DNA of 19,967 nucleotides from Candidatus Thorarchaeota archaeon SMTZ1-45 (GTDB lineage Archaea > Asgardarchaeota > Thorarchaeia > Thorarchaeales > Thorarchaeaceae). Below, piece by piece: positions 1 through 19,967 of this stretch (position 1 is its first letter; each line of letters starts with the position of its first letter). A program made the position numbers and the translations under genes. The notes under the pieces were generated by a model. It was not told the DNA's origin. It ran no database searches and worked only from the letters and a program-made list of their open reading frames with translations. The stretch lies in the NCBI GenBank assembly GCA_001563335.1, contig LRSL01000050.1, positions 1-19,967 on the forward strand, read 5' to 3'.

Positions 1-345
1 CCTTACGACTTAATCACGTTCGTGGAACGTCTACCAGAATCATGGGCAACCTATTTCTACTTGTCAATTGGCCATCCAGAAAAGGATGCAGAGTTCCTGA
101 GAGAACGTTCTCCAAGCACGTACATGGATCAGCTGATAGCGCCTTTGCTTGTTATACAGGGTAAAAACGATCCTCGAGTAGTTGAGAGAGAGTCTAAAGA
201 TATTGTCGTTAGATTGAATGCATCTGGCAAGCACGTGGAATATCTCATGTTCGAGAATGAAGGACATGATGTCATTAAATTTAACAACAAAGTAACAGTT
301 TACAACAAGATTGTCGAATTCTTTGAGGAACATTTGAAGCCATAA
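1..345 (+). CDS. S9 family (prolyl oligopeptidase/acylaminoacyl-peptidase-like) serine peptidase, C-terminal fragment truncated by the window start
   Basis: Frame is open from base 1 (PYDLITFVERLPESW...). Motifs PLLVIQGKNDPRV (catalytic Asp) and FENEGHD (catalytic His) are typical of the S9 C-terminus. Confidence 0.9.
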   Translation, partial: PYDLITFVERLPESWATYFYLSIGHPEKDAEFLRERSPSTYMDQLIAPLLVIQGKNDPRVVERESKDIVVRLNASGKHVEYLMFENEGHDVIKFNNKVTVYNKIVEFFEEHLKP

Positions 346-397
346 TGTCTTTCAAATGTCATATTTCAATATTGAGTCTGTCGAAAACGGAATTGAT

Positions 398-2263
398 TCA
401 TAATTCAAATTCTTGGTCCTTCCACCAGCCTATGACAATGATAACAGACACTATAGCAACTATTGCTATTGAAAAAGTGGGAATAGAAAGTACTTCAGGT
501 TCAGCCAAAAATGGATTTGAACCTGCAAGGAACTCTTCTATGTTTGTTTTACCATCTTCATCGGGATCTTGGTCAGCATCATTAGCAAGAGGATTGAGAC
601 CGTATTCATGTTCCCAACCATCAGGCATCAAATCGAAATCAGTATCAACACTCCAAGGGTTAAGGCCGAGAATATATTCTTCAGCATTTGATAGAGAATC
701 ACCATCATAATCTGCAGCTCCATCAGAAGGATCAGTTGGATCAAACCCATTATCGATCTCATATTTGTCATCCATAGAATCTGAATCTGAGTCAATGTTG
801 TTGTCATCAGTACCAAGAAAGAGTTCATCAGCAGTTGAAATTCCATCAGAATCTGAATCAGTGCCAAATAGCCTGGTATCTATCCAGAACTCTTTACTAT
901 CAAGAATACCGTTGTGGTCGATATCACTGTCATAGGAGTAGCAGAGCTCGAATCCTACGACATCATTTCCAGTATTATTTAGAATAAGAGTATAGAGTCC
1001 CCTATTTGAAACAGATATGTTGAACAAATTGGTATGTTCCCAAGCTGATGCATGGTCAAACTCAGCAACTCCTATTACTTGGTCAAAAGGGTCTGTAATA
1101 GAAAATGAAGCAGGACCGACAAACCATCTGCATGTAACTTCTATGTTTGTCGCTACTGTGATAGGTATGTAGATCTTTTCTGTCCAACCATGTTGAATAA
1201 TAAAGGAGAAGTTGAATTCTCTACGCTCTCCATAAGTCCGACCCATTACATAAGCCATACTTCCACCGATAGCTGCGGCTACCTCTCTGCAAATATCATA
1301 GTTAAACAATACGTTGAAGTAAACATCATTCCCACTATGATAGGATGGATCAACAGCCCACCCTGATTCAAAAGCACAGATTGTTCCTGAGAATCCTCTT
1401 ATATAGAATGGATAATGGTCTGAAATCCCCCAGAGAGGGAAGAGGAATGAAGGAACTGGTGATATATAATTCGAGCCATAGTTATTACTGATTGTCCTAG
1501 TTAGTTCTGCCCAATACTGACCTCTGCTATAGTCACCAATACCATCATAGCCCATGAGTACCTTCTCGTCATTAGGTGCATCAGGATCTGGATATAGAAT
1601 AGTATCGATGTTGAAAAGGGCAAGAGTTTCAATTCCTCTATGTTCAAATTCAGTTGAAACCTCTCGACTTCCTTCCAAGTAATCCACCATCTCTCTACCG
1701 TGTGGGTGAAGCCCATTGAGAGCTACGAAATATATATCTAAGGGCCACTTGAATTTAGACATAACTTCTGCCAAAACAAGCATTGCCGCAATACCTGCTC
1801 CATTGCAATTTGCACCAGGACATCCATCAGGAGAGTCATAATGCGCTGTTACAATAAATACTGGATTGTTGCCTGGTAAATATCCTGGTAGTTTTCCGAC
1901 GACATTATAATAACTTCCAATGATTTCAATCTCAATCTTTCCACCGGATAGTCCATCTAATTGTCCTATTATATAATTTCGAGCATACTTATTCGGACCC
2001 TCGATATCTGCATCAAATACAGCGCTGATATATCGCGAACCATTTTCAGTAAAACGCTGTACAATACTTCGTATCTTAGAAATTGCTATTTCTTCATAGA
2101 TTTCTTCAATGACTAATTCACCATATACATGTCCAGAGGCAACTTCCGCTTTGGTAACTTTCAAAATTGATCTATCTCTGATTGTGGGATTTTCGGATAT
2201 TGGTACCAAAAGAAGGAATGAAAAGATGATTACAAACCACAATCGCTTCAAGGGTTTTACCAT
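398..2263 (-). CDS. Secreted, membrane-anchored M28 peptidase-fold protein with Ca-binding TSP3-like (DxDxDG) repeats and an atypical active site
   Basis: N-terminal hydrophobic signal; M28 motifs YNVVGKLPG, AHYDS, PGANCNG, NIDTI, SDH and YHS; six DxDxDG...G[TFLS][DN][DP]-type repeats; C-terminal TM helix followed by WWK. Confidence 0.85.
   Translation of the reverse strand: MVKPLKRLWFVIIFSFLLLVPISENPTIRDRSILKVTKAEVASGHVYGELVIEEIYEEIAISKIRSIVQRFTENGSRYISAVFDADIEGPNKYARNYIIGQLDGLSGGKIEIEIIGSYYNVVGKLPGYLPGNNPVFIVTAHYDSPDGCPGANCNGAGIAAMLVLAEVMSKFKWPLDIYFVALNGLHPHGREMVDYLEGSREVSTEFEHRGIETLALFNIDTILYPDPDAPNDEKVLMGYDGIGDYSRGQYWAELTRTISNNYGSNYISPVPSFLFPLWGISDHYPFYIRGFSGTICAFESGWAVDPSYHSGNDVYFNVLFNYDICREVAAAIGGSMAYVMGRTYGERREFNFSFIIQHGWTEKIYIPITVATNIEVTCRWFVGPASFSITDPFDQVIGVAEFDHASAWEHTNLFNISVSNRGLYTLILNNTGNDVVGFELCYSYDSDIDHNGILDSKEFWIDTRLFGTDSDSDGISTADELFLGTDDNNIDSDSDSMDDKYEIDNGFDPTDPSDGAADYDGDSLSNAEEYILGLNPWSVDTDFDLMPDGWEHEYGLNPLANDADQDPDEDGKTNIEEFLAGSNPFLAEPEVLSIPTFSIAIVAIVSVIIVIGWWKDQEFEL
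510..931 (-). repeat. Coding tandem Asp-rich TSP3-like calcium-binding repeats within the M28 protein
   Basis: DSDIDHNGILD, DSDSDGISTADE, DSDSDSMDDKYE, DYDGDSLSNAEE, DTDFDLMPDGWE and DPDEDGKTNIEE, mostly followed by GTD/GFDP/GLNP/GSNP. Confidence 0.8.
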
Positions 2264-2402
2264 TGCGCATATCCTCCGAGCAGGCCTCTCAAATTAATTC
2301 GGAACCGTTAAAGAAATCCTACTATAAGCGCAATCTCTGCCTATGATGTTATAGCTATGAAAAGAAACACCTTCGAAATTATAATGAATAAAGGAAATCG
2401 AA

Positions 2403-2440
2403 TGATTAACAAGTCAAGACATGTTGACTAACTAGTCAAG
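2403..2440. promoter_or_regulatory. Tandem palindromic operator, probable transcription-factor binding site
   Basis: Perfect inverted repeat TTGACTA-AC-TAGTCAA (2424-2439). A 14/16 identical copy lies 22 bp upstream (TGATTAACAAGTCAAG 2403-2418 vs TGACTAACTAGTCAAG 2425-2440), in the divergent intergenic region before the ArsR gene. Confidence 0.65.
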
Positions 2441-2487
2441 GACCGTAGGATTATATCATTCCATTCCCTTGTCAATCGTGAAGAAAA

Positions 2488-2940
2488 ATGACCTCGGATG
2501 AAGTGTTTGAAGCAATTTCTCACCCAATGAGAATTGCTATCTTGAAGGAACTTGCCAAGAAACCTACACGTTTTGCAGATCTGAAACGGAAACTACGGAT
2601 TAAGAGTAGCGGTCTCCTGGACTTTCATCTCAAGAAAATGGACACAGTCGTGACAACTGACAAAGATGGAAGGTATACTCTGAATGATAGGGGATTTGCA
2701 GCTCTTAGGGCAGTCTATGTTGTTTCGAACTATGGATGGCAACGAAGAGCGTGGTTCATCAATGTGGCAACTATCCTTTTCATCAATGTCTACATGTTCT
2801 TCTCAATTCCCGAATTCTTTGTTTTCAGTGCAGTGCCAACATTTGGGTGGTTGGTCTTTTACAGTTATTGGACATTTGTGAAGAGGCGAGTACGACTGAG
2901 AAACAATGGCATCGAAACTGAAAATGTGGAGGTGTCCTAG
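2488..2940 (+). CDS. ArsR-like winged-helix transcriptional regulator with C-terminal transmembrane segments
   Basis: VFEAISHPMRIAILKEL...RFADLKRKL...SSGLLDFHLKKM...GRYTLNDRG winged HTH, followed by two hydrophobic stretches flanked by basic residues. Confidence 0.85.
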   Translation: MTSDEVFEAISHPMRIAILKELAKKPTRFADLKRKLRIKSSGLLDFHLKKMDTVVTTDKDGRYTLNDRGFAALRAVYVVSNYGWQRRAWFINVATILFINVYMFFSIPEFFVFSAVPTFGWLVFYSYWTFVKRRVRLRNNGIETENVEVS

Positions 2941-3033
2941 GATGAATTATCGCGTAGTTGTTAAACATTATATATCTTCTAGAGAAGCATGCACATCCGA
3001 GAGTTTCTTCATTGAACGAAGGGAGTTTGAATT

Positions 3034-3816
3034 ATGGTGACTGCTGTAAAAATTGAAAATCTTGTGAAGACCTTTGGAGACTTGGTCGCTGTCAACGAAC
3101 TCACACTAGATATTCGGGAAGGTGAGATTTATGGTCTTCTTGGTCCCAATGGTGCTGGGAAAACTACAACAATCAAAATGCTGATGGGACTGCTGGATCC
3201 AGACTCTGGTCATGCTAGTGTGTTTGGTATCGATTCATCAAAAGACCCGGTAGAGGTCAAACGTCTTGTTGGATATGTGCCTGAAGACCAACAGCTATAT
3301 GATTCACTTACCCCGCGGGAGCTTTTTGATTTCATTGCATCAATTAGGCAGCTCCCTCAGGAAAGGATTAACAAGAGAATCAAGGAGTTTGTGAAAGCTC
3401 TCGATTTCGGAAAGCATTATGACAAGATGATTGTCACACTCTCACAGGGTAACAAGCAAAAGACTATGTTGATAGCAGCTCTCCTACATGCTCCCAAGCT
3501 ATTGATACTCGATGAACCATTCTCAAGCCTCGATGTTCGTTCAGCAAAAATCATGAAAGACATCGTAAGGATACACGCTGAAAACGGAGGTTCAGTTTTA
3601 CTTAGCACTCATGTCATGGAAGTTGCTGAGGGTCTATGCGATCGTGTTGGCATAATCGATGAGGGAAGTTTAGTTGCAGAGGGCACACTTGAAGAACTCC
3701 GTGTTCAGGCTCATAAAGAAGCAGCGACTCTTGAAAGTCTGTTTTTGAAACTAACAGAACAGGAAGAAGAGGTTGAAGAAGGAGTGTCTGTCCTTAGGGA
3801 GGCACTGGCAGAATGA
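3034..3816 (+). CDS. ABC transporter ATP-binding protein (ABC-2/drug-exporter type)
   Basis: Walker A GPNGAGKTT, signature LSQGNKQK, Walker B LLILDEP, H-loop STH; GGGAG upstream. Confidence 0.95.
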   Translation: MVTAVKIENLVKTFGDLVAVNELTLDIREGEIYGLLGPNGAGKTTTIKMLMGLLDPDSGHASVFGIDSSKDPVEVKRLVGYVPEDQQLYDSLTPRELFDFIASIRQLPQERINKRIKEFVKALDFGKHYDKMIVTLSQGNKQKTMLIAALLHAPKLLILDEPFSSLDVRSAKIMKDIVRIHAENGGSVLLSTHVMEVAEGLCDRVGIIDEGSLVAEGTLEELRVQAHKEAATLESLFLKLTEQEEEVEEGVSVLREALAE

Positions 3817-5450
3817 GATTCTCAGAGAGCTGGAAACTAGCTGGAGTCATAGCTCAAGAATCTCGTTTCCAAGCTTTTCTAGAGATGAACCCATCCAATC
3901 TTGCTCGTGTAAAAGAAGAACCCGAGAAGATTGCTCGATCGATTAAATCATCAAGTCGCATCAGCTATTTTATGACTACCATCATTTTATTGATGATTGC
4001 TGTTATTGCACTTGCTGCGTCTTCATTTGATGTATCACTAGGAAACCCAGAAGCTAGGTTAGCTATTGGTTTCACAGTTTATCTGGCGTTGAGTTTTGTC
4101 GTGGTATTCTTTCTTAACCTCACATCCACCACTGGACTAATCACATCCGGTGCGATGAATCTACCAGCCACCTTACCTCTAAGTAAGGCGGATATTGAAC
4201 AACTCTCATTCATGACCTTTGCCAGAGTATTTCTAGCTCCAGTGTTGCTTTCTCTTATAATATTCCCAATCGGAAGTTTACTTGTGTTTGGACCTTTGGT
4301 TGCAATAGTTGCTTTTGTTGCATGTTCGAGTACAGTGTCAATCGCCATAGCAGCTCTCATAGCAATGTCAAAATGGTTCCATAAGAAGTCGCATTCATCA
4401 GATGAATCAAGAAGCTCCGCTTTTGTCAGAATTGCTGCTTCGCTTGGTATTGTTATAGGCATGGTCAGTGTGTATGGCTTAAGCAGCTATCTTCCTGATC
4501 TTATGCGATTCATAATTGAACTTTCAAGTATTTGGGGTGAAACTGCGTTCACTACTTTGGCACTAGTCTTTCCGTTTTCATTCGGTTTCTTTGCAGCTTC
4601 ACTAGCGTTTGAAACGCCAGTCAGCACTATTCTTGCATCCGCAATTGGGACCCTCTTGTACACTTTGCTAGCAATAGTTGCATACCAACGAAGTGGAAGA
4701 TCACTTAGACAAATCACTATTAGTGGAGTGCCAACTACGCAAATCAATGTAGAGAAAGAAGTCATTATCAGATTAACTAGTCCGTTAAAGGCAATGATTA
4801 GAAAAGACCTCAAATTGGCTACACGAAATGTTGGATCCGCGTTTGTGTTTGCAATTCCTATTTTCCTAGTTGTTATGTTATTTCCAATGATTCAGTATTG
4901 GAAAGTTGATGGGTTGCTTAGAAGTATGACTGCTTTGACAGCAGTTAATTATGCCAACCTATTTGGCGGAATTTCATTAGTATCCATACTGATGTTCGAT
5001 ACACAAGGCGCATCTGTTCATGAAGGATTACCAATAAGCTCCAAGCTTGTTCTTCAAAGTAAAACATCAATACTACTCGTACCGTATATCTTGAGCATGA
5101 TTGCTATCGACATTATGATTTTAATTAACAATCCAATCACACCACTTCTATTACTTATCCCAATCATCCAGTTTCCTGTTGGATATTTTGTAGGAATGGC
5201 AGTAGGTACAACAGTATTCAGAATAAGAGGTGGTGGCAGAGCAGTGGCAGTAAATGTCGCCTCTGACCAGGCAATGGGTTTAGTTTCTGCAGCAATTGGA
5301 ACAATTGCAGGTATTCTTCCTCTTCTTGGATTTGGGATTGCAATGCTTGTCACAGGGTCTCAAGTTGTAAGTCTTGCATGTCAGAGCATATTGGTACTGG
5401 TTTCAATCTTAGTCGCTCAGAAATTCATACCAAGACTCCTGAAGGATTGA
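3813..5450 (+). CDS. ABC-2 type exporter permease (large, about 12-14 TM)
   Basis: ATGA overlap with the ATPase stop (translational coupling); many TM helices; AMIRKDLKLATRN begins a second permease half. Confidence 0.85.
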   Translation: MRFSESWKLAGVIAQESRFQAFLEMNPSNLARVKEEPEKIARSIKSSSRISYFMTTIILLMIAVIALAASSFDVSLGNPEARLAIGFTVYLALSFVVVFFLNLTSTTGLITSGAMNLPATLPLSKADIEQLSFMTFARVFLAPVLLSLIIFPIGSLLVFGPLVAIVAFVACSSTVSIAIAALIAMSKWFHKKSHSSDESRSSAFVRIAASLGIVIGMVSVYGLSSYLPDLMRFIIELSSIWGETAFTTLALVFPFSFGFFAASLAFETPVSTILASAIGTLLYTLLAIVAYQRSGRSLRQITISGVPTTQINVEKEVIIRLTSPLKAMIRKDLKLATRNVGSAFVFAIPIFLVVMLFPMIQYWKVDGLLRSMTALTAVNYANLFGGISLVSILMFDTQGASVHEGLPISSKLVLQSKTSILLVPYILSMIAIDIMILINNPITPLLLLIPIIQFPVGYFVGMAVGTTVFRIRGGGRAVAVNVASDQAMGLVSAAIGTIAGILPLLGFGIAMLVTGSQVVSLACQSILVLVSILVAQKFIPRLLKD

Positions 5451-5565: not shown

Positions 5566-6816
5566 ATGTCTGAAAATGAGCCCCAAGAAAATGAAAATTC
5601 AATGTTCCAGAGGGTTCGCTTAATTCTATTTGAACCATCAACTGATATTCAATCTGACATTCTTCGAATGAATGCTAAACTTCTGTCTTTTGCATTATTT
5701 CTTATTGTTATTCTCCTTCCATTTATTCAATTACTATTGGGCATCCTGCTTGGTAATATTCCATTATTTTTCTTTGCTTCTGCTATCTTCTTCTTTCTTT
5801 ATCTAATTAGTAGAACAAAGTATGCAGTGATTGCAGGAATGCTTACTACTCTTTGTATGGCTATAATGCCTTTCCTTTTCCTATCAGTTGAATTTAATCA
5901 GGAACCCGTGAGGGTAGTAATGAATATCATTATCTGGCCTGTCATTGCAGCGCTTTTTGGTAGCCAATGGTTAACTGCGAAATTAGAAGCTCTACTCATT
6001 TCTTGTGAAACAATAGGTCTTTCCATCTACTGCTACCTCCATCCTAATATTGGACTTGGTATTGCGTTTGAACCCATTGTTGATCAAGCAGCACTCTCTC
6101 TTGTTGTACTGATTTTTACCTGGATGTTACATTATTATTTGTCTCAACTAGAAGAACACAGACAATTCCTTGAGCAACGTCAGCGTGAGCTTGAGGTTTA
6201 TACTTCAGTCTTGACTCATGACCTCGGCAATGATATGCAAATAGTACGAGGTCTTGTTGAACTATTACATGAAACAACTCAAGTGCCTGAGGATAAGGAG
6301 TTATATCTCTTGACATCTCTTGCTGTCAGTGAAAGGATGTCACGAGTTATCAAACTCTTCTCAGTTGTTGGACGCGGTGTAGAATATGATTTTCTTGAAA
6401 CCCTTCAAACAATGGCTAACAGAGCAAAGGATGCTACTGGAGGGGCTCATGTAAGTCTCCTCATTGAACCTGACATTCGCTCAGCTGATATCCGACCGGG
6501 TATCTTACTTCCATTGGTTCTGGAAAATCTGATGAGGAACACTGCAGATTATGCTGGTGAAAGTGCTGTTGTGACTATACGTCTAGGACTCGTGGAGAAG
6601 AGATTGATAATCACATACCGGGACAATGGACCTGGTATCGATCCTAGCATCAGAGATCGCATTTTTCAAAAAGGAGTCACAACTAAAGGTGAAGGAAAAG
6701 GTCTTGGTCTATATCTCTCAAAGAGAATTGTAGAATCATACGGTGGCACAATTGAGTTGTTGGACGAGAAGGAAAGAAGAGGGGCCGCATTTCTTATCTC
6801 AGTTCCAGTTCGATAA
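5566..6816 (+). CDS. Membrane-bound sensor histidine kinase
   Basis: About 6 N-terminal TM helices, a coiled coil, H-box THDLGND, N-box ENLMRN, G1 DNGPGI, F-box IFQKG, G2 GKGLGL. Confidence 0.93.
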   Translation: MSENEPQENENSMFQRVRLILFEPSTDIQSDILRMNAKLLSFALFLIVILLPFIQLLLGILLGNIPLFFFASAIFFFLYLISRTKYAVIAGMLTTLCMAIMPFLFLSVEFNQEPVRVVMNIIIWPVIAALFGSQWLTAKLEALLISCETIGLSIYCYLHPNIGLGIAFEPIVDQAALSLVVLIFTWMLHYYLSQLEEHRQFLEQRQRELEVYTSVLTHDLGNDMQIVRGLVELLHETTQVPEDKELYLLTSLAVSERMSRVIKLFSVVGRGVEYDFLETLQTMANRAKDATGGAHVSLLIEPDIRSADIRPGILLPLVLENLMRNTADYAGESAVVTIRLGLVEKRLIITYRDNGPGIDPSIRDRIFQKGVTTKGEGKGLGLYLSKRIVESYGGTIELLDEKERRGAAFLISVPVR

Positions 6817-7536: not shown

Positions 7537-8802
7537 ATGAAGAAAGAAACCTTGACTGATGGTGACCTACCATTAGTTAGCAGTTCGCGTCCTGGCAGAC
7601 TTGGTCTTAGCCCTAACCTATGGAGATTGGCTGCAGTTATTGCCATTGCACAGTTCTCAACAGCTCTTTGGAAATGGGAATTTAGTATCTTTCTTGAGGG
7701 TTTCCTTGAACCTTGGCAAATTGGATTTGTGTTCTCACTTGCCACTTTTTCCGGGCTTATTGCCAGTGTTTTCTCTGGATATATTGCTGACTTTATTGGT
7801 AGAAAGTGGACAATCTCCCTAGGTTTCTTACCGATAGTTATTGGACTCTTCACGATGTCATTCTTTCCTATATGGCCCTATGTTGCAATACAATATGGCT
7901 TAGTCTGGTTCGGTATGAGCACTGCACGGCTTATGGCTAGAGCTATCCCTGCAGACGAGATTGCGTCTGATGACGGAAGTAATCCCGCACGGCGTCTCAT
8001 GATGGTAATGATGCCTTTGTGGTTTGTCGACGCGCTCGGTCCTTTCACTGGCTCCTTTCTTCTGAGTTCTGGATATCAATCTGGAAATCTTCACTTCATA
8101 GGTTCAATCTGTGCTATCTTTACATTCGTTTCTGCAATCATACTATTGAAAGAATCACTTGGAGCTGAAGTCATTAAAAAAGCCCGTGCAGGTCCAAAGA
8201 TCTCTTTTCGAAGGCTTGGACGTAGTTTTTGGTTACTTTCACTTGGTATGATTGGATTTGTGTTCGCTTGGAGTAGTTCAATTCCATATCTCGGAAACCT
8301 TAGTGTCGGGCCTTGGAATGTTGATACTGTAACCTATGGTCTCACTTGGAGTTTGTTCTCAATCACAAGCGCTTGCATAATGTATCCTGCTAGTAATCTT
8401 ACAGATAGAAATCTGAAGGGCACTTTATTGGCTGGAGTACTAGGAAACGCATTGATTCTCTTGTGGTTTAGTCAAGGAAGTGGAGTAGTCATGATGTATC
8501 TCATCAATTTTGTCTGGGCAATTCCATTTGTGCTCTGGACTGGTTCTGTGAAAAGCATTACTGTCCTCGTTGTGTCCGAAGAAGTCAAAGGACGAGCACT
8601 CGGTACCTATGATTTTCTAATGGGAATTGTTGGTATGATCGCTCAGATTTTTGGTGCTGCAGTGTGGGAAATCTCAGGCAGTCTTCGAGTTGTCTATGGT
8701 GTTGCAGGTTTAATCGCTTTAGTCACTTCAGTACTAGTATTTATTATACTCAGATTAATCCAAATCCCCAACCATTTAGAGAAGCCAATGGAGTCCACCT
8801 GA
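7537..8802 (+). CDS. Major facilitator superfamily transporter
   Basis: About 12 TM helices; motif A GYIADFIGRK; EEVKGRALG in the C-terminal half. Confidence 0.92.
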   Translation: MKKETLTDGDLPLVSSSRPGRLGLSPNLWRLAAVIAIAQFSTALWKWEFSIFLEGFLEPWQIGFVFSLATFSGLIASVFSGYIADFIGRKWTISLGFLPIVIGLFTMSFFPIWPYVAIQYGLVWFGMSTARLMARAIPADEIASDDGSNPARRLMMVMMPLWFVDALGPFTGSFLLSSGYQSGNLHFIGSICAIFTFVSAIILLKESLGAEVIKKARAGPKISFRRLGRSFWLLSLGMIGFVFAWSSSIPYLGNLSVGPWNVDTVTYGLTWSLFSITSACIMYPASNLTDRNLKGTLLAGVLGNALILLWFSQGSGVVMMYLINFVWAIPFVLWTGSVKSITVLVVSEEVKGRALGTYDFLMGIVGMIAQIFGAAVWEISGSLRVVYGVAGLIALVTSVLVFIILRLIQIPNHLEKPMEST

Positions 8803-10541: not shown

Positions 10542-12272
10542 GTGACGAATGAGAATCACGAAGCATCATGGCTACACAAGGTAATGGAAGTAGTCCGTGA
10601 TGGCTTTGTCGTCATCCAAGATGAAGACATCATTATCACCAACTCCTCCTTTGCTGATATGCTTGGTTATGACAAAGAGAGTCTTGTTGATACTCCTTTT
10701 GAAGATTTGATTGAACCAATGTCACGAAGACGAGACCAGGAAATGATTGAGGCTCTAGTCACAGGCGAACATGCAACGCGATTCATTACTCGTCTTTTAT
10801 CAAAAAATAATGATGTCCTTCATGTTGAAATCACTCCAACTGAAATTAAATTAGATGGGGCGCCAGCAATCATCGCCACAATTCGAGACATCACCTCCCA
10901 AATGGAACTTGAAGCAGCTGTGACAGAACTAGAGAATCGGTTTGCCACTCTCTATGATCTATCCCCTGTTGCATATTTCACATTGAATCGAAATGGAACC
11001 ATTGAGCAGGTAAATGCGGCTGGAGAAGAATTGCTTGGTTGTGATGCTGACTTTATTATCGGTAAGTCTCTCTCAGAGTTTCTACCTGATCCTGAACCAA
11101 GATATGACCCTGGTGCAGATATCGTCAGAGAAGCAGTTAGAGGAAAAAGTGTAAGTGGGTTAGAGATTCAAATGAAAAAAGGAGATGGTAAGATTATCTG
11201 GGTTAACATCTCCTCAAGTCCTCTCACTTCAGGAACTGAGAAAGTAAGTGAGATTGGTTTGACTGCTTTTGATGTGACAACACGACGCGGTGTGGAACAG
11301 AGACTCAGACATGAGAGTGAAAGGGCTAATTTGTACATGGAGGTCATGACTAGTGATCTGAACATGACAAATCAAAATGTGCTATTCGCATTGGAGGACC
11401 TTGCAATCTCTTTAGACATTCCTGATCGTCTGCGTGGACTCCTTAGTGAAACTGCTTGGAGTGTTCGAAGTGCAGGAAGAATGATTGCCAATATGGGTGT
11501 TCTGATATCATTAGGTCAATCACCTCCAGATAAAGTCGAAACTAAGCTTCAACCCCACTTCAATAAGGCTGTTCGAGAAGCTACAAGAGACTTTGAATGG
11601 AAGACCATTAATATTGAATCCAATATTCCTGAACAATCAATCAATGTTGTTGGACATGCCTTCATGTGGTACATTTTCTTCAATATAATTCACTATTGCG
11701 CAAGTGAAGACCCTAGTACAACTGTCGAGCTAAATATCAATGCAGATAGCACTGAAGATGGTGAAATGGTCAGAATCGAATTCTTAGATCGAGGACCCGG
11801 AATTCCAGATGAACACAAGAATCAGATATTTAGACGATCCGGAGAGATAGAGGAGCAACTGGCTGGAAAAGGTCTTGGTTTGACTGTTGTTGATAGGTAT
11901 ATTGAACATCTTGGAGGAAGAGTATGGGTAGAGGATAGAGTCCTGTCAGATCCTTCTCAAGGGAGTAAGTTCATTGTACTATTGCCAGCATGGAAAGAAG
12001 AACTCAAGATTCCACCAATCATGTTCTATAAATCAGACCATTGTGTATTCTGCGGACCTGTTCTTGAATCGTTGAACGCTGTTCTGAAAGAGATGAATAT
12101 TAGTCCTGCTACTATACAACTCATCAATGTGGATGACCCTAACTCTGGTGTAAGTGAAGACGAATTACCTGCTTTGCCAACTATTTACATGGGTACTAAA
12201 CAACTTGCAGGTTTCGTATCTGAGGATGACCTGAGATATGAAATCTCCACAATGCTTCTCATGTCTGGTTAA
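10542..12272 (+). CDS. PAS-PAS histidine-kinase-like protein lacking the phospho-acceptor His, with a C-terminal thioredoxin-like CxxC domain
   Basis: Two PAS domains (NSSFADMLGY...RDIT; VNAAGEELLG...WVNISSSP...FDVT); degenerate H-box MTSDLN; HATPase DRGPGIP, IFRR, GKGLGL, GGRVWVE; tail FYKSDHCVFC...INVDD...ALPTI...GF. AGGTG lies upstream of the GTG start. Confidence 0.88.
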   Translation: MTNENHEASWLHKVMEVVRDGFVVIQDEDIIITNSSFADMLGYDKESLVDTPFEDLIEPMSRRRDQEMIEALVTGEHATRFITRLLSKNNDVLHVEITPTEIKLDGAPAIIATIRDITSQMELEAAVTELENRFATLYDLSPVAYFTLNRNGTIEQVNAAGEELLGCDADFIIGKSLSEFLPDPEPRYDPGADIVREAVRGKSVSGLEIQMKKGDGKIIWVNISSSPLTSGTEKVSEIGLTAFDVTTRRGVEQRLRHESERANLYMEVMTSDLNMTNQNVLFALEDLAISLDIPDRLRGLLSETAWSVRSAGRMIANMGVLISLGQSPPDKVETKLQPHFNKAVREATRDFEWKTINIESNIPEQSINVVGHAFMWYIFFNIIHYCASEDPSTTVELNINADSTEDGEMVRIEFLDRGPGIPDEHKNQIFRRSGEIEEQLAGKGLGLTVVDRYIEHLGGRVWVEDRVLSDPSQGSKFIVLLPAWKEELKIPPIMFYKSDHCVFCGPVLESLNAVLKEMNISPATIQLINVDDPNSGVSEDELPALPTIYMGTKQLAGFVSEDDLRYEISTMLLMSG

Positions 12273-13802: not shown

Positions 13803-13889
13803 CTATATGAATGATGTGACCTGTTCAGAGAGCAAGAAGTGAATTCTTGCGTACTATTAATAGGCAGATATGCAGTAGGTGAAAAAGAA

Positions 13890-14993
13890 ATGACTGAAGT
13901 TATTAGTAGGCGTAGATATATTACAGCTTTTCTTATCAAAATACTAATAGTCTTATCATTCCCTCTAACTGGATTTCTCTCACTATCAAGTGTTGATTGG
14001 TATTCTATTCTCTTCGTTGTTAGCGGAAATCAATTTATTATGTTCAATTCAGTCTTTTCTGTTTTTGTAGCGTTATTCATAATGCTACCTGGTATTCTCT
14101 TTGAGTACCACTTGAACAAAAAACCAATCTCGAAGTCAATACGTGGGAGAGCAGTTGCCTCATCAATTATATGCATTTTTATTGGGATCTATGTGCCCTT
14201 AGGTACGGCTTCTTTCCCTGACATGGCTTTGTTTTATGCAAGAAACTACGCACCTATCCTTACTATTGCTTTCTTTGTTATCCTTCCAGTAATATCACGA
14301 GAATCAATGTTACGGAGCGTTCCTTTTGAATCTCGTTTGAGAAGCTACAATTCCTTTAGGCAAATTTTTCGAAGAAAGATGAAACGAGAAATTCTTCTCT
14401 CGGGACTTCTTTGGGCCGGTCTTGTATTCTGTCCTTTTCTAATCAGTTCTGTTTATACAGGGTGGCACCCTCAATTTAGTTACTGGTCTCTCTTCTACGA
14501 ATATGAGATTTATGCTGAATATTCATATTTTGGTGGGTTACAGGTGATATTTTCTGATACTCTCAGGATTAATGCATTAATGCCATCTGAAATGCTATTA
14601 TTTGTCTTCTTGTCAGCAATACGTTTCATATTTGTTAGAGATATATTTCGACATCAGGTAACTATTGTCAAGAAATCACGACTTATATCAGTAGCAATCT
14701 TAGGTGAGATACTTCCTGCTGCCACTGTCACGCTTCTCACTCTAAGCGTCATTCCCCTAGAATTCATCACTCTTCTTTTCTTTCCCATGCCGATACTACC
14801 TATTGTCGGTTTCATTTATATAAAGTTCAGTAGGGCAATCCCGATAAAGGAAGAGATTTGGCAAGACCAAGAATTTAGAATGTGGTTTGAGAAGGAACAA
14901 GAATCCCGTCTTCCAGAAACAACTGATGAGTCAATTAAAGTTCCGATGTTGTATCTAATAGTTTCACAAGTCCGCAAACGTATGAAAGAATAG
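13890..14993 (+). CDS. Hypothetical multi-pass membrane protein
   Basis: Long ORF with about 9-10 hydrophobic segments. The ATG at 13890 is preceded by AGGTGA (ORF track start 13839). No family recognised. Confidence 0.75.
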   Translation: MTEVISRRRYITAFLIKILIVLSFPLTGFLSLSSVDWYSILFVVSGNQFIMFNSVFSVFVALFIMLPGILFEYHLNKKPISKSIRGRAVASSIICIFIGIYVPLGTASFPDMALFYARNYAPILTIAFFVILPVISRESMLRSVPFESRLRSYNSFRQIFRRKMKREILLSGLLWAGLVFCPFLISSVYTGWHPQFSYWSLFYEYEIYAEYSYFGGLQVIFSDTLRINALMPSEMLLFVFLSAIRFIFVRDIFRHQVTIVKKSRLISVAILGEILPAATVTLLTLSVIPLEFITLLFFPMPILPIVGFIYIKFSRAIPIKEEIWQDQEFRMWFEKEQESRLPETTDESIKVPMLYLIVSQVRKRMKE

Positions 14994-14999
14994 CCTAAT

Positions 15000-16451
15000 T
15001 CACACAGAAATAAAGACCAATGTCTTTACTACTACTGGAACCACAACATCTTCGATGATTGGCTCTCCTATGTCTATGAAATCTCCCTCCCTTAGTTTAA
15101 TCTCATCGATAGAAAGTAATTCATTTTTTATTCCAGTTTCTCGTTTCATGACATTACCGACACTATTACCAATATCTGCATCAAAACACATGAAAATGGG
15201 GGCTTGGTTTTTAACAGTATTTGGCAGAGCGTTTACAACTCCAAGTACAAATTCTCTGAGATTCTCATAAGATGGTCTAACAGACTTATTAAAAGCTAAA
15301 ATGAGCGGGTCAAAACCTTCAATCAAATCGAATCTTGATAACGCTCTCTCGATGGCATTTTTAACATCTAGTGATGACGGTTTCCTCGTGGCAATATATG
15401 GTTCGATAACAGGTAGATTCCGCAGTGGGTATTTGAGCCCTTGTGAAAGGAAAGTAGTTGAACCACTGACCTGAAGACTGAAGTTGCCTGCTCCTATCAC
15501 AGTAGCACGTATCTTGTGCTCGGGTCTTTCTACAGGTAAGTTCAATTTTGTCACTTTTTCCTTGATTGCCTTGGCTAATGATACTCCAAGATCGTTGAAC
15601 ACCCTCTCCTCACAGCCATAGTAATACTCAGCAACGCCACCGGAAAAAGTCATTGAATCAATTCTACTGTCAAACTGGAGTTGAGGTGCCATCATGAGTC
15701 TTGAAGTAATTCTTGAGAGCTGAACTTGTTGCATACTTTCAATTAGGGCATCGGCAAGAACATCCGCTATCCTATCCTGGGCGTCTTCTGAAAGTTCTTG
15801 ACCAAGTTCCAGGTTTAGTCCCACTGCTTCAGCGAGTTTCTTGCCTGTTTCTTCCAAGCGGATGATTCTTCGACTATCATCAGTAGCAATCAATCTCCCA
15901 CCAACATTGATTGCTGTAGTAGCTTCGACCCTCCCGTCCTTGCATACAGCAATATTAGATGACCCACCACCTATATCAACATTCATGATTGTTTTTCCTG
16001 TTTCGGCTGACCTTGCCACAGCACCCGATCCGTATGCTGCAAGAACAGATTCAAAATTAGGTCCTGCAGTCACAGCGACAAATTTACCTGCTTCACCAGC
16101 AAGAGAAGTTACAATCCATTCTGCATTCTCTTTTTTTGCGGTTTCCCCAGTTATGATGACTGCACCTGTGTCAATTTCAGAAACTCCAATTCCTGCTTCT
16201 CGATAGTCATTCAGAAGTAGATCTCGAAGTCGCTCGAAATCGATGTTATTTGCATCCTTGAAAGGAGTGAGGTGAATTGGACCTGAGTGGAGTATTTTTC
16301 GTTCCTTAATCTCAAACTTCTCGGAACGAGAATTCTCATTTCTCTCAAGTACAATTTGGCTGAACACGACATGGGAAGTCGAAGTACCAATATCGACTCC
16401 AACACTTGTGAGTTCCTTTCGTTTAGTTTGGATGACCATTGTCATGTTCAC
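15000..16451 (-). CDS. eutA: Ethanolamine ammonia-lyase reactivating factor EutA-like protein (ASKHA ATPase); start may be the ATG at 16445 or 16439
   Basis: SVGVDIGTSTSHVVFS, GAVIITGETAKKENA, AGKFVAVTAGPNFES, NVDIGGGSSN, IRATVIGAG, PLRNLPV and GDFIDIGEP...VPVVVKTLVF match EutA. Confidence 0.9.
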   Translation of the reverse strand: MNMTMVIQTKRKELTSVGVDIGTSTSHVVFSQIVLERNENSRSEKFEIKERKILHSGPIHLTPFKDANNIDFERLRDLLLNDYREAGIGVSEIDTGAVIITGETAKKENAEWIVTSLAGEAGKFVAVTAGPNFESVLAAYGSGAVARSAETGKTIMNVDIGGGSSNIAVCKDGRVEATTAINVGGRLIATDDSRRIIRLEETGKKLAEAVGLNLELGQELSEDAQDRIADVLADALIESMQQVQLSRITSRLMMAPQLQFDSRIDSMTFSGGVAEYYYGCEERVFNDLGVSLAKAIKEKVTKLNLPVERPEHKIRATVIGAGNFSLQVSGSTTFLSQGLKYPLRNLPVIEPYIATRKPSSLDVKNAIERALSRFDLIEGFDPLILAFNKSVRPSYENLREFVLGVVNALPNTVKNQAPIFMCFDADIGNSVGNVMKRETGIKNELLSIDEIKLREGDFIDIGEPIIEDVVVPVVVKTLVFISV

Positions 16452-18054: not shown

Positions 18055-19002
18055 ATGATTGAGCTTCAAGACATTTATGATGCTCATAAGCGAATTCGAG
18101 ACTATGCTCTTTGGACTCCAGTAATGACATCTTCAACTATTGACAAGTTGATTGACTGCAAAGTTTTTTTCAAATGTGAGAATTTCCAACGAGTTGGTGC
18201 TTTCAAATTCAGAGGTGCTTTAAACACAATATCACAATTGACTGACGATGAACGAAAACGGGGAGTCATTGCCCACTCCTCTGGAAATCATGCACAAGCA
18301 TTAGCTCTTGCCGCATCACTCTTGCACATCAAAGCCACGATCGTAATGCCCAAGAACTCGCCAAAAGTAAAAGTTGATGCTACTTGTGGTTATGGGGCGG
18401 ACGTGGTATTCTGTGAGAATTCAATAGAAAGCAGAGTGAAAGTGGCAAATGAATTGATTGAAAGATATAACTATGTCCTAATTCATCCCTACAATGACGA
18501 ACGAATCATAGCTGGAGCTGGTACTACTGCATTGGAACTTATTGAGGAAGTCAGAGTAATTGATTATATGTTTGCACCAGTGGGAGGTGGAGGTCTTTTA
18601 AGTGGCACATCAATTGCTACAAAGGGGCTTTGTTCCGATTCTAAAGTTATTGGAGTTGAGCCATCAAATGCAGATGATGCTTTTCGCTCCTTTAGAGATG
18701 GCAAAATCTATCCAAGTATCAATCCAAACACGATTGCAGATGGTCTGAGAACTCAGCTCGGTGATCTGACTTTCCCCATTATCAAAGAGTACGTTGACTC
18801 TATCGTTACAGTTACTGAGGAGGAGATTGTAGAAGCCATGAAACTTCTTTGGGAACGAATGAAGATAGTTGTCGAACCTTCTGGTGCTGTTTCCTTGGCA
18901 GGAGTCATAAAAATGAGAGATGAATTACAAGATAAACGGCTTGGAGTAATCATCAGTGGTGGCAATATTGACCTAACAGAGTTCTTCTCAAGATATCTAT
19001 GA
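18055..19002 (+). CDS. PLP-dependent serine racemase / serine-threonine dehydratase (fold type II, no ACT domain)
   Basis: KCENFQRVGAFKFRGA (PLP Lys), HSSGNHAQA, PVGGGGLLSG, EPSNADD, TIADGL, ERMKIVVEPSGA, SGGNID. Confidence 0.92.
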   Translation: MIELQDIYDAHKRIRDYALWTPVMTSSTIDKLIDCKVFFKCENFQRVGAFKFRGALNTISQLTDDERKRGVIAHSSGNHAQALALAASLLHIKATIVMPKNSPKVKVDATCGYGADVVFCENSIESRVKVANELIERYNYVLIHPYNDERIIAGAGTTALELIEEVRVIDYMFAPVGGGGLLSGTSIATKGLCSDSKVIGVEPSNADDAFRSFRDGKIYPSINPNTIADGLRTQLGDLTFPIIKEYVDSIVTVTEEEIVEAMKLLWERMKIVVEPSGAVSLAGVIKMRDELQDKRLGVIISGGNIDLTEFFSRYL

Positions 19003-19967
19003 TTTGTAATCACGCTCACGTATCTTTGGTAGCCACACCACAAACTCTGCTCCTTTGGTAGGCTCACCTTTTACACGATCTCTTACGTCGATTCGTCCCC
19101 CATATTTGTCACAGATATGCTTGGTTTGGTGGAGTCCAACACCTCCATAACGTCTTGACAAATCAAATATAGCTGCCTTCAGTGAGCCAGAAATTCCTTG
19201 TCCATTGTCACCCACAGCAATTTCATACCCTTCTCCACTCTCTCTAAGAGAAATCCACACAATCCTTTCCTCTCTTGGATTATGTTCAATTGCATTCTCA
19301 ATTAGATTACCAAGTAATTGTTCTAGAAACTGATCTGCTTCAATAAGAGCATTGTCAACTTCTAGTGACATATTAAAAGTTACATCTCTGTGCTGGTCTT
19401 CATAGGACTCTACTACTGTTTCAATAGTTGTGTCTAGCTTTCTAATTCTGAGTGGAACTGACATCAAAGGCTCAGTGACCTTTACTTTTGATATCATACT
19501 CTGACATCTTTCAACTGATGAAACAATCTGTCCCAAAAGCCGACGAGCCTCAGGATCTTGAAGCTTCATCTCCATCACCATGGTACTTCCTAGGATTATC
19601 TGTAATTGGTTTCTGAAGTCATGAGCCATTAGGTCAATGAGATGCATTGCACGCTCTTTTTGAGTTTCAATATGCTTCTCAGCATCAAGGCGCTCTGTGA
19701 CATTCATAGCCACAAGCTGGATGGCTGGAGCATCTTCATATTCCACACGTCTACCAAACATTTCTAACCATTGCATATCTCCATCCTTTTGAAAGACACG
19801 AATAATCATTGGTATTTTGTTTGGTGGATCTCCCTTCAGTAGTTCTTGTAATCTGTTCATGACTGAGTCCCAGTCATCAGGATGAATTATGCTTTGAATT
19901 TCCTTTGAAGAAAGTGCAAGGACTTCTTCTACACTTCTCTCAAGAAAACCAGCGAAAGCTGGGTTGG
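18997..19967 (-). CDS. PAS domain sensor histidine kinase, 5' truncated by the window end
   Basis: Frame stays open to the edge (NPAFAGFLERSVEEVL...IIHPDDW, a PAS signature); H-box AHDFRNQLQ, N-box NLIENAIEH, G1 DNGQGI, G2 GGVGL. The stop overlaps the convergent upstream gene by 6 bp. Confidence 0.92.
   Translation of the reverse strand, partial: NPAFAGFLERSVEEVLALSSKEIQSIIHPDDWDSVMNRLQELLKGDPPNKIPMIIRVFQKDGDMQWLEMFGRRVEYEDAPAIQLVAMNVTERLDAEKHIETQKERAMHLIDLMAHDFRNQLQIILGSTMVMEMKLQDPEARRLLGQIVSSVERCQSMISKVKVTEPLMSVPLRIRKLDTTIETVVESYEDQHRDVTFNMSLEVDNALIEADQFLEQLLGNLIENAIEHNPREERIVWISLRESGEGYEIAVGDNGQGISGSLKAAIFDLSRRYGGVGLHQTKHICDKYGGRIDVRDRVKGEPTKGAEFVVWLPKIRERDYKS

Follow-up and report, generated by a model that had tools for sequence, protein, structure and literature searches.

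A putative DivL-like pseudo-histidine kinase with a predicted thioredoxin-fold tail and its His-bearing sister kinase in Thorarchaeota

DivL of Caulobacter crescentus has been reported to possess neither kinase nor phosphatase activity; its kinase core binds a phospho-regulator and steers another kinase (PMC4211667). Likewise, the histidine pseudokinases RocA from group A Streptococcus and PsmA from Streptomyces are described as non-catalytic regulators, either of a true kinase or of a protein complex (PMC7380576, PMC12963549). Here, we describe a gene of Candidatus Thorarchaeota archaeon SMTZ1-45 that is located at positions 10542..12272 (+) of a stretch of 19,967 nucleotides, contig LRSL01000050.1, which is referred to as the window. 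The gene encodes a soluble protein built of two PAS domains, a dimerization and histidine phosphotransfer (DHp)-like hairpin, a catalytic and ATP-binding (CA) domain and a thioredoxin-like tail, and, judging from alignments and substitution rates, it is a conserved paralogue under purifying selection. As in DivL (PDB 4q20), PAS sensors precede a DHp-CA core of the HisKA type in which the phospho-acceptor His is missing (Tyr in DivL). DivL is bacterial and membrane-anchored and to our knowledge contains no thioredoxin domain. Unlike DivL, the window protein has a C-terminal CxxC domain, and its direct paralogue is a kinase built in the same way. RocA and PsmA differ from it in their domain content and in not being archaeal, and the available sections of the two sources mention no thioredoxin fusion.

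Thiol chemistry and thioredoxin-like domains are linked to histidine kinases in different ways. In ArcB, RegB/PrrB and SrrB thiol chemistry gates the histidine-kinase core via single cysteines in the DHp domain, the CA domain or the linker of active kinases, and we know of no dedicated thioredoxin-fold domain in any of them. SasA is an active kinase with an N-terminal KaiB-like domain that binds KaiC and is not known to contain a CxxC motif. In one study, cyanobacterial SasA is presented as a histidine kinase with a thioredoxin-like domain used for signaling (10.1101/2020.06.17.158394). Unlike in SasA, the domain of the window protein is C-terminal, carries an invariant CxxC and is joined to a dead kinase. 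The small archaeal redox-active disulfide proteins of the Thioredoxin_3 type (1fo5; 6mos) resemble the tail in their minimal fold of about 85 aa, with CxxC and cis-Pro in register; unlike them, the tail is joined to a kinase core, its active site reads HCVFC and its ancestral forms have four more cysteines. Surveys of archaeal and Asgard two-component systems do not mention the family in their accessible parts, one of them noting an Asgard kinase homologue that lacks the catalytic His (PMC10343646, PMC5847659). A full-text search of the published literature found no kinase-thioredoxin fusion, no kinase core with a C-terminal CxxC thioredoxin domain and no pseudokinase family like this one, in line with the original prediction, made from the DNA sequence alone, which had not recognized the architecture as a characterized system.

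The reading frame 10542..12272 (+) runs over 576 codons without internal stops, the stop codon being included in the coordinates, and its GTG start lines up with the ATG-started N-termini of the orthologues (open reading frame (ORF) list and translation). All features of the gene given in the following lie on the + strand. The first PAS domain spans residues 10-126 (10569..10919), the best stretch for the NCBIfam model TIGR00229 (sensory_box), and Pfam PAS families match in two stretches; the second spans residues 133-249 (10938..11288) and is covered by Pfam PAS (133-242), PAS_9 (142-246) and PAS_4 (139-249). The DHp-like helical hairpin comprises residues 247-326 (11280..11519), with helices 247-290 and 295-326 in the AlphaFold2 (AF2) model. 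It is followed by the CA domain, residues 332-484 (11535..11993), delimited by the AF2 secondary structure and by Pfam HATPase_c, which matches residues 381-483 with 56.3 bits compared to a cut-off of 26.4. The C-terminal thioredoxin-fold domain, residues 486-576 (91 aa; 11997..12269), is predicted from AF2, Foldseek and profile matches. Pfam HisKA does not match the window protein, and the NCBIfam scan of the whole protein returned PAS and kinase models only.

The kinase core keeps its fold and has lost residues needed for catalysis. The AF2 model of residues 246-576 (predicted local distance difference test, pLDDT, of 84.8) contains a two-helix DHp hairpin and a CA domain, and Foldseek matched this core with HK853 at the top (E 3e-13), with WalK/YycG and CpxA, and also with DivL (4q20). 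The H-box reads EVMTSDLNMTNQ. At the position of the phospho-acceptor it has Ser271, encoded by AGT (11352..11354), which is two substitutions away from CAT/CAC and aligns with the His of the paralogue encoded in the same genome (EVMTHDLNNVNQ). The other two kinases of the window read VLTHDLGNDMQ (5566..6816 +) and LMAHDFRNQLQ (18997..19860 -) at this place. The N-box Asn binds Mg-ATP. The second Asn of the N-box is lost in the window protein, which reads FFNIIHYCASED (NIIHYC) compared to NLIENA in the kinase at 18997..19860 and NILHNA in the paralogue, which thus keeps both His and Asn; Tyr385 (TAT, 11694..11696) takes its place, a position that is Y in 24, F in two, and H and S in one each of the sequences of the window's clade. 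The acidic residue following the phospho-acceptor position, Asp272, is present, and the position at +4, where HisKA kinases with phosphatase activity have Thr or Asn, is Met275 (11364..11366; M in 26/28 of the clade), so that the pattern H-E/D-x-x-T/N is not formed. The G1 box (D416-R-G-P-G420), the F box (F430) and the G2 box (G442-K-G-L-G-L447) are intact (11787..11882). Because Ser271, Tyr385 and Met275 replace His, Asn and Thr/Asn, the window protein lacks the determinants of kinase activity, ATP-Mg binding and phosphatase activity alike. That it cannot perform standard His autophosphorylation, as the original prediction had held, agrees with the orthologues: none of 24 has the His, nor does any of the 56 rows in the His-less clade of the genome census described below. 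His257 and His339 were considered as alternative phospho-acceptors and rejected: His257 varies between H, Q, V and E among orthologues; His339 is invariant in the 24 orthologues, but it is located in the first CA helix of the AF2 model and is Tyr in the own-genome paralogue.

The tail is modeled as a minimal thioredoxin fold of the class of about 85 aa. The active-site motif C501-V-F-C504 (12042..12053; C501 is TGT at 12042-12044, C504 is TGC at 12051-12053) directly follows His500, and Pro546 of LPALPTI (12177..12179) occupies the place of the thioredoxin cis-Pro, strand 3 of the AF2 model starting with the next residue. This tail model was built from an alignment of 53 tails (pLDDT 87.1, predicted template modeling score 0.75) and shows the order strand-helix-strand-strand-strand-helix, with C501 and C504 at the N-terminal end of helix 1. 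Foldseek of the model returned thioredoxins or thioredoxin fusions as most of the 40 PDB rows listed, with TM-scores to the query of at most 0.74. Compared to PDB sequences, the tail profile matched the thioredoxins 6mos (E 0.0016) and 1fo5 (85 aa, E 0.0042), whose CxxC and Pro align with those of the tail, and hhalign aligned it with a 110-aa protein of the same genome (probability 97.8%, E 1.1e-12) that passes Pfam Thioredoxin_3 (38.5 bits, cut-off 24.8). A Pfam scan of the tail of the window protein alone gave nothing over threshold, with AhpC-TSA as best match (E 0.03). The profile and structure searches thus point to the thioredoxin fold that the original prediction had suspected for the last 90 or so residues, and all its sequence statements on 10542..12272 were borne out, from the frame, the H-box, the N-box and the retained G1 and G2 boxes to the CxxC, INVDD and ALPTI of the tail.

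Every family ORF that extends into the tail has both Cys and the LPALP Pro (77-78/82, the others ending at contig ends), a degree of conservation far beyond chance. Pro546 is found in 77/77 tails covering that position, C501, C504, Pro506 and Pro546 are kept in all groups of the family, and H500 in 74/75 scored. The domain belongs to a small family: among 1.84 billion cluster representatives, only 106 match the profile at E<=1e-3, with about 20 kinase fusions, about 60 proteins of 90-130 aa that stand alone and a small number of other fusions. The leucine-rich-repeat proteins P0172, P0173 and P0178 among the matches were dismissed as repeat-driven. Relatives of the tail domain were also seen in the arrangements PAS-Trx-...-HATPase_c, PAS-Trx-PAS, Ras-like GTPase-Trx, Trx-Arf-like GTPase and Trx-V4R (P0189, P0213, P0197, P0209 and P0200; Trx, thioredoxin-like domain), and because they are fused to other signaling modules the small thioredoxin domain may be a recurrent signaling module. 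Two stand-alone proteins of 110-122 aa from the same genome, at 1444..1812 (-) of contig C27 and 1435..1767 (+) of contig C77, have the ancestral cysteine pattern of the kinase tails, with a Cys ahead of strand 1, the CxxC, the motif I-C-D/E behind the cis-Pro strand and a Cys at the C-terminus. In the ancestral-type tails the four additional cysteines look, from their sequences, like a separate metal site, and they were lost together in the window's clade.

In the database, 272 relatives of the window protein were found at E<=1e-3; the architecture is common to the 120 of these that were listed, and the named relatives among the matches listed belong to Thorarchaeota, Promethearchaeota or Hodarchaeota. 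Over 24 diverse orthologues the mean column identity is 65%, and residue 271 is S in 19, N in two, T in two and Q in one. The genome encodes a His-bearing paralogue on contig C4, which is 41% identical to the window protein over 565 aa. A family alignment was made of 82 ORFs from 80 public loci and the own genome; it has S at position 271 in 45, H in 23, Q in seven, N in three and K and R in one each, the remaining two ORFs being cut off. Furthermore, 87 species-representative genomes of the window's class were searched at E<=1e-80 and all 129 matches were read; these census genomes and the 80 loci come largely from the same collection and so are not independent samples. The family is present in 76/87 genomes, of which 50 have one His and one His-less copy, 15 have the His copy only, eight have the His-less copy only and three are unassigned due to truncated matches. 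The His-bearing sister gene is thus present in 50/58 genomes with a His-less copy. In the window's genus both copies are found in 25/28 genomes, usually about 18-20 kb apart on one contig. The His-less lineage is found in 11/16 genera holding the family, and five genera have the His copy only. Among the His-less copies scored in the census 44/58 have Ser at 271; across the His-less lineages the residue is S, Q, N, T, K or R, with N or Q occurring also within the window's genus.

Phylogenetic analyses placed the His-less copies on one side of a single branch, both in a quick IQ-TREE of the family (50 versus 21 rows, SH-aLRT support 99, unrooted) and in a FastTree of the census (56 versus 64 rows, support 99, unrooted; 0/56 with His), which fits a single loss of His after duplication. 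The rows that also lost the N-box Asn are nested among the His-less ones as a clade of 24 rows with support 100 (quick IQ-TREE). To judge from tree and alignment, the window gene arose by duplication of a thorarchaeotal kinase that already had the C-terminal thioredoxin-fold domain, and after duplication the phospho-acceptor His was lost once in one copy. The decay is stepwise as far as residue counts in three groups tell, i.e., His copies (n=22), His-less copies with Asn kept (n=27) and the window's clade (n=28): the His went first and then, in the window's clade, the phosphatase T/N, the Mg-binding Asn and the four accessory cysteines. Position 271 is H in 22/22 His copies, S, Q, K or N in the intermediate group and never His in the window's clade. 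Position +4 is N or S in 22/22 and 14/27 of the first two groups and M in 26/28 of the third. Position 385 of the N-box is N in 22/22 and in 27/27 and Y, F, H or S in 28/28. The glycines of G1 and G2 are present in 22/22 His copies each, G2 Gly442 in 15/27 of the intermediate group, and G418, G420 and G446 in 20/28, 22/28 and 21/28 of the window's clade. The tail has six cysteines in 20/22 His copies, six in 15 and two in 11 of the intermediate group, and two in 27/27 of the window's clade. It had been asked whether the change from H to S, the loss of the N-box and the CxxC are jointly conserved. The loss of His is indeed fixed in the orthologue group and the CxxC is kept, but the loss of the N-box Asn is restricted to the window's sub-clade (28/55 His-less ORFs scored), the Asn being kept in the other 27/55.

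Within the genus, the nonsynonymous substitution rate (dN) is far below the synonymous one (dS) in the DHp, CA and tail domains of both paralogues. Overall, dN/dS amounts to 0.067 in the His-less copy and to 0.053-0.058 in the His copy. These ratios are rough, given the saturation of synonymous sites (median dS about 2) and the small share of pairs that could be computed over the whole region (43/325 His-less and 22/276 His-type pairs). Per domain the values are about 0.07-0.10, DHp and CA being as constrained as the tail (0.067, 0.093 and 0.101). The window gene therewith shows the features of a pseudo-histidine kinase of the DivL type: the fold is kept, the phospho-acceptor is lost and purifying selection acts on the gene.

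The two paralogues have different gene neighbors. The His copy of the own genome (contig C4, 9 kb) is encoded at 449..2221 (-), divergent from an ArsR/SmtB gene at 2367..2720 (+) that is followed by a gene for a heavy-metal P1B-type ATPase of the Zn/Cd kind at 2704..4614 (+); this ATPase matches TIGR01525 with 557 bits, passes the Cd-family model TIGR01512 and fails the Cu model. A DsrE-like gene (26..388 +) and a receiver-domain gene (8055..8663 +) were also found on this contig, and the tail of the own-genome His copy has seven Cys, six being usual in the His group. The ArsR/SmtB gene adjoins 20/23 His-type loci and the P1B ATPase gene 19/23, while neither was found beside the His-less gene (0/57 loci). 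As the linkage of kinase, ArsR and ATPase recurs in 19-20/23 His-type loci, the sister kinase may sense soft metals or thiol stress. Neighbors of the His-less gene are common to closer relatives only and suggest no function; TrmO-like (26/57 loci), MscS-like and EutA-like genes are among them. Within the window, a 384-aa ORF without Pfam match (13839..14993 +) is encoded beside the EutA-like gene (15000..16451 -; PF06277, E 3e-140). The ORF recurs in 19 related loci and the EutA-like gene in 20; no other ethanolamine-utilization genes were seen in the window. Both other kinases of the window are ordinary and His-bearing: the one at 5566..6816 (+) is membrane-bound and has 416 aa, and the one at 18997..19860 (-) may extend upstream, as the open frame runs to the window end. 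Within the window no receiver gene adjoins either of them.

We favor the reading that the window protein is a DivL-like pseudo-histidine kinase with a thiol-switch tail that acts in the pathway of its His-bearing sister kinase, and we regard the chance of this as about even. The protein is a soluble, probably dimeric PAS-PAS sensor on a histidine-kinase core that is predicted to be unable to autophosphorylate. By analogy to DivL, it would signal by contact instead of phosphotransfer. The PAS domains together with a thiol switch in the tail, i.e., a disulfide or the ligation of a metal or an iron-sulfur cluster at the HCxxC site, would set the conformation of the DHp/CA core, which would then bind and modulate a partner. 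Thiol chemistry is argued to be the retained function of the tail as the HCxxC and the cis-Pro are invariant. The likeliest partner would be the His-bearing sister kinase or the response regulator of that kinase because of the co-occurrence in 50/58 genomes and the likeness of DHp helix 1, the core of which is the segment most alike between the paralogues (identity 0.54 compared to 0.43 overall, 46 genomes). The kinase/pseudokinase pair may report thiol or soft-metal stress since the sister kinase adjoins the ArsR/SmtB regulator and the heavy-metal P-type ATPase, and its six-Cys tail points to the same setting. The suggestion in the original prediction that the protein modulates partner kinases thereby gains support, although neither the co-occurrence nor the likeness of DHp helix 1 proves contact.

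Several observations weigh against this reading. Shared descent alone can explain the co-occurrence of the paralogues, their extra identity in DHp helix 1 is modest, and the contact of the window protein with the paralogue or its regulator is a prediction from sequence, as is the redox activity or metal binding of the CxxC. Eight genomes show the His-less copy but not the proposed partner, though all of them are drafts of 73-92% completeness. No response-regulator or receiver gene is a conserved neighbor of either paralogue (23 His-type and 57 His-less loci). No single tail of the 53 reaches a Pfam gathering score; below threshold, Glrx-like was matched by 19/53 and Thioredoxin by 9/53. The roughness of the dN/dS ratios also counts here. 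Lastly, nucleotide binding by the window protein may persist, as G1 and G2 are intact, and it might matter.

Other readings give the tail or the core a different role. The tail could be the output, the window protein being a PAS-regulated thiol-disulfide oxidoreductase in which the dead kinase core would serve only as dimeric scaffold, linking sensing to how reactive or accessible the CxxC is for target proteins. In favor of it, conservation is strictest at the CxxC, the cis-Pro loop and His500, against a decay of the catalytic residues of the kinase, the tail profile shows homology to small proteins of the Thioredoxin_3 type that stand alone, and related domains are fused to PAS, Ras/Arf-like GTPases and V4R. 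Yet the equal constraint on DHp, CA and tail goes beyond the needs of a passive scaffold, and no gene for a target or a reductase is a conserved neighbor, which makes this reading unlikely. In a two-protein thiol relay, a disulfide would pass between the tails of the paralogues, or the tails would have a metal or iron-sulfur center in common. The His-less copy would then convert a PAS-sensed signal into a change of the redox or metal state in the tail of the active kinase, gating this kinase and, through it, the neighboring ArsR/heavy-metal-pump response; we hold this to be quite unlikely. If true, thiol chemistry would replace phosphotransfer between two kinase-fold proteins in Asgard archaea. 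The tail could also serve as docking module only, like the KaiB-like domain of SasA that binds KaiC, with structural cysteines. A stand-alone relative of the tail is encoded directly upstream of a KaiC-family ATPase gene in the own genome and matches Pfam KaiB with 28.2 bits (cut-off 27) besides Thioredoxin_3. But both Cys and the cis-Pro are invariant in 77/77 tails, and the preceding His is present in 74/75 scored, neither KaiB nor SasA is known to carry a CxxC, and the 15 families listed for 53 tails do not include KaiB; the docking role is very unlikely. The locus of this relative, at 698..2285 of contig C56, encodes the 110-aa CxxC protein, flanked on the same strand by the KaiC-family ATPase gene and by a Roadblock/LC7 gene, and from its sequence the protein may be a KaiB-like partner with the cysteines kept.

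Other GHKL-type kinases that phosphorylate Ser exist, and Ser271 could be a new phospho-acceptor, as had been proposed in the original prediction; Ser is in fact the commonest residue at this position (45/82 family ORFs, 44/58 His-less census copies). A Ser-autophosphorylating kinase is nevertheless highly improbable because residue 271 varies among the His-less lineages, with Q, N, T, K or R in others and N or Q even in the window's genus, and the Mg-binding Asn is gone in the window's clade, so that this proposal was not upheld. The protein could still be a phosphorelay enzyme, either a dedicated phosphatase of a response regulator or, in a heterodimer, a CA domain phosphorylating the His of the sister kinase. 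The window protein retains Asp272 at +1 together with intact G1, G2 and F boxes, and the earlier-branching His-less clades keep the N-box Asn (27/27) and often N or S at +4 (14/27). In some kinases, the phospho-acceptor His is not strictly needed for phosphatase activity (PMC3510030). The same source states that Thr/Asn at H+4 is required and that substitutions there abolished the phosphatase activity of four HisKA kinases (PMC3510030), and the window's clade has Met at this position (26/28). The Mg-binding Asn is replaced by Tyr, Phe, His or Ser in 28/28 of this clade and its G1/G2 glycines begin to vary, which makes a phosphorelay role decidedly unlikely. That the gene results from faulty assembly or is a functionless, decaying pseudogene has next to no probability; the missing catalytic residues and nothing further would speak for it. 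The same full-length architecture is found on dozens of independent contigs, so the fusion taken at face value in the original prediction is real, the frame has no internal stops, dN is far below dS and the His-less lineage is found in 11/16 family-holding genera. As judged from this conservation, the artefact or pseudogene reading is refuted.

The known pseudo-histidine kinases are a handful of bacterial proteins, and no described archaeal family was found in the literature. Intact and dead versions occur together in 50 species genomes, and the order of the losses can be read from them. This constitutes a natural experiment on the change from kinase to regulator and on the part that the thioredoxin domain plays after the end of catalysis. 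The ArsR regulator and the heavy-metal pump linked to the intact copy provide a concrete physiological setting that can be tested. Signaling in Asgard archaea is relevant to the origins of eukaryotes and is almost untouched experimentally.

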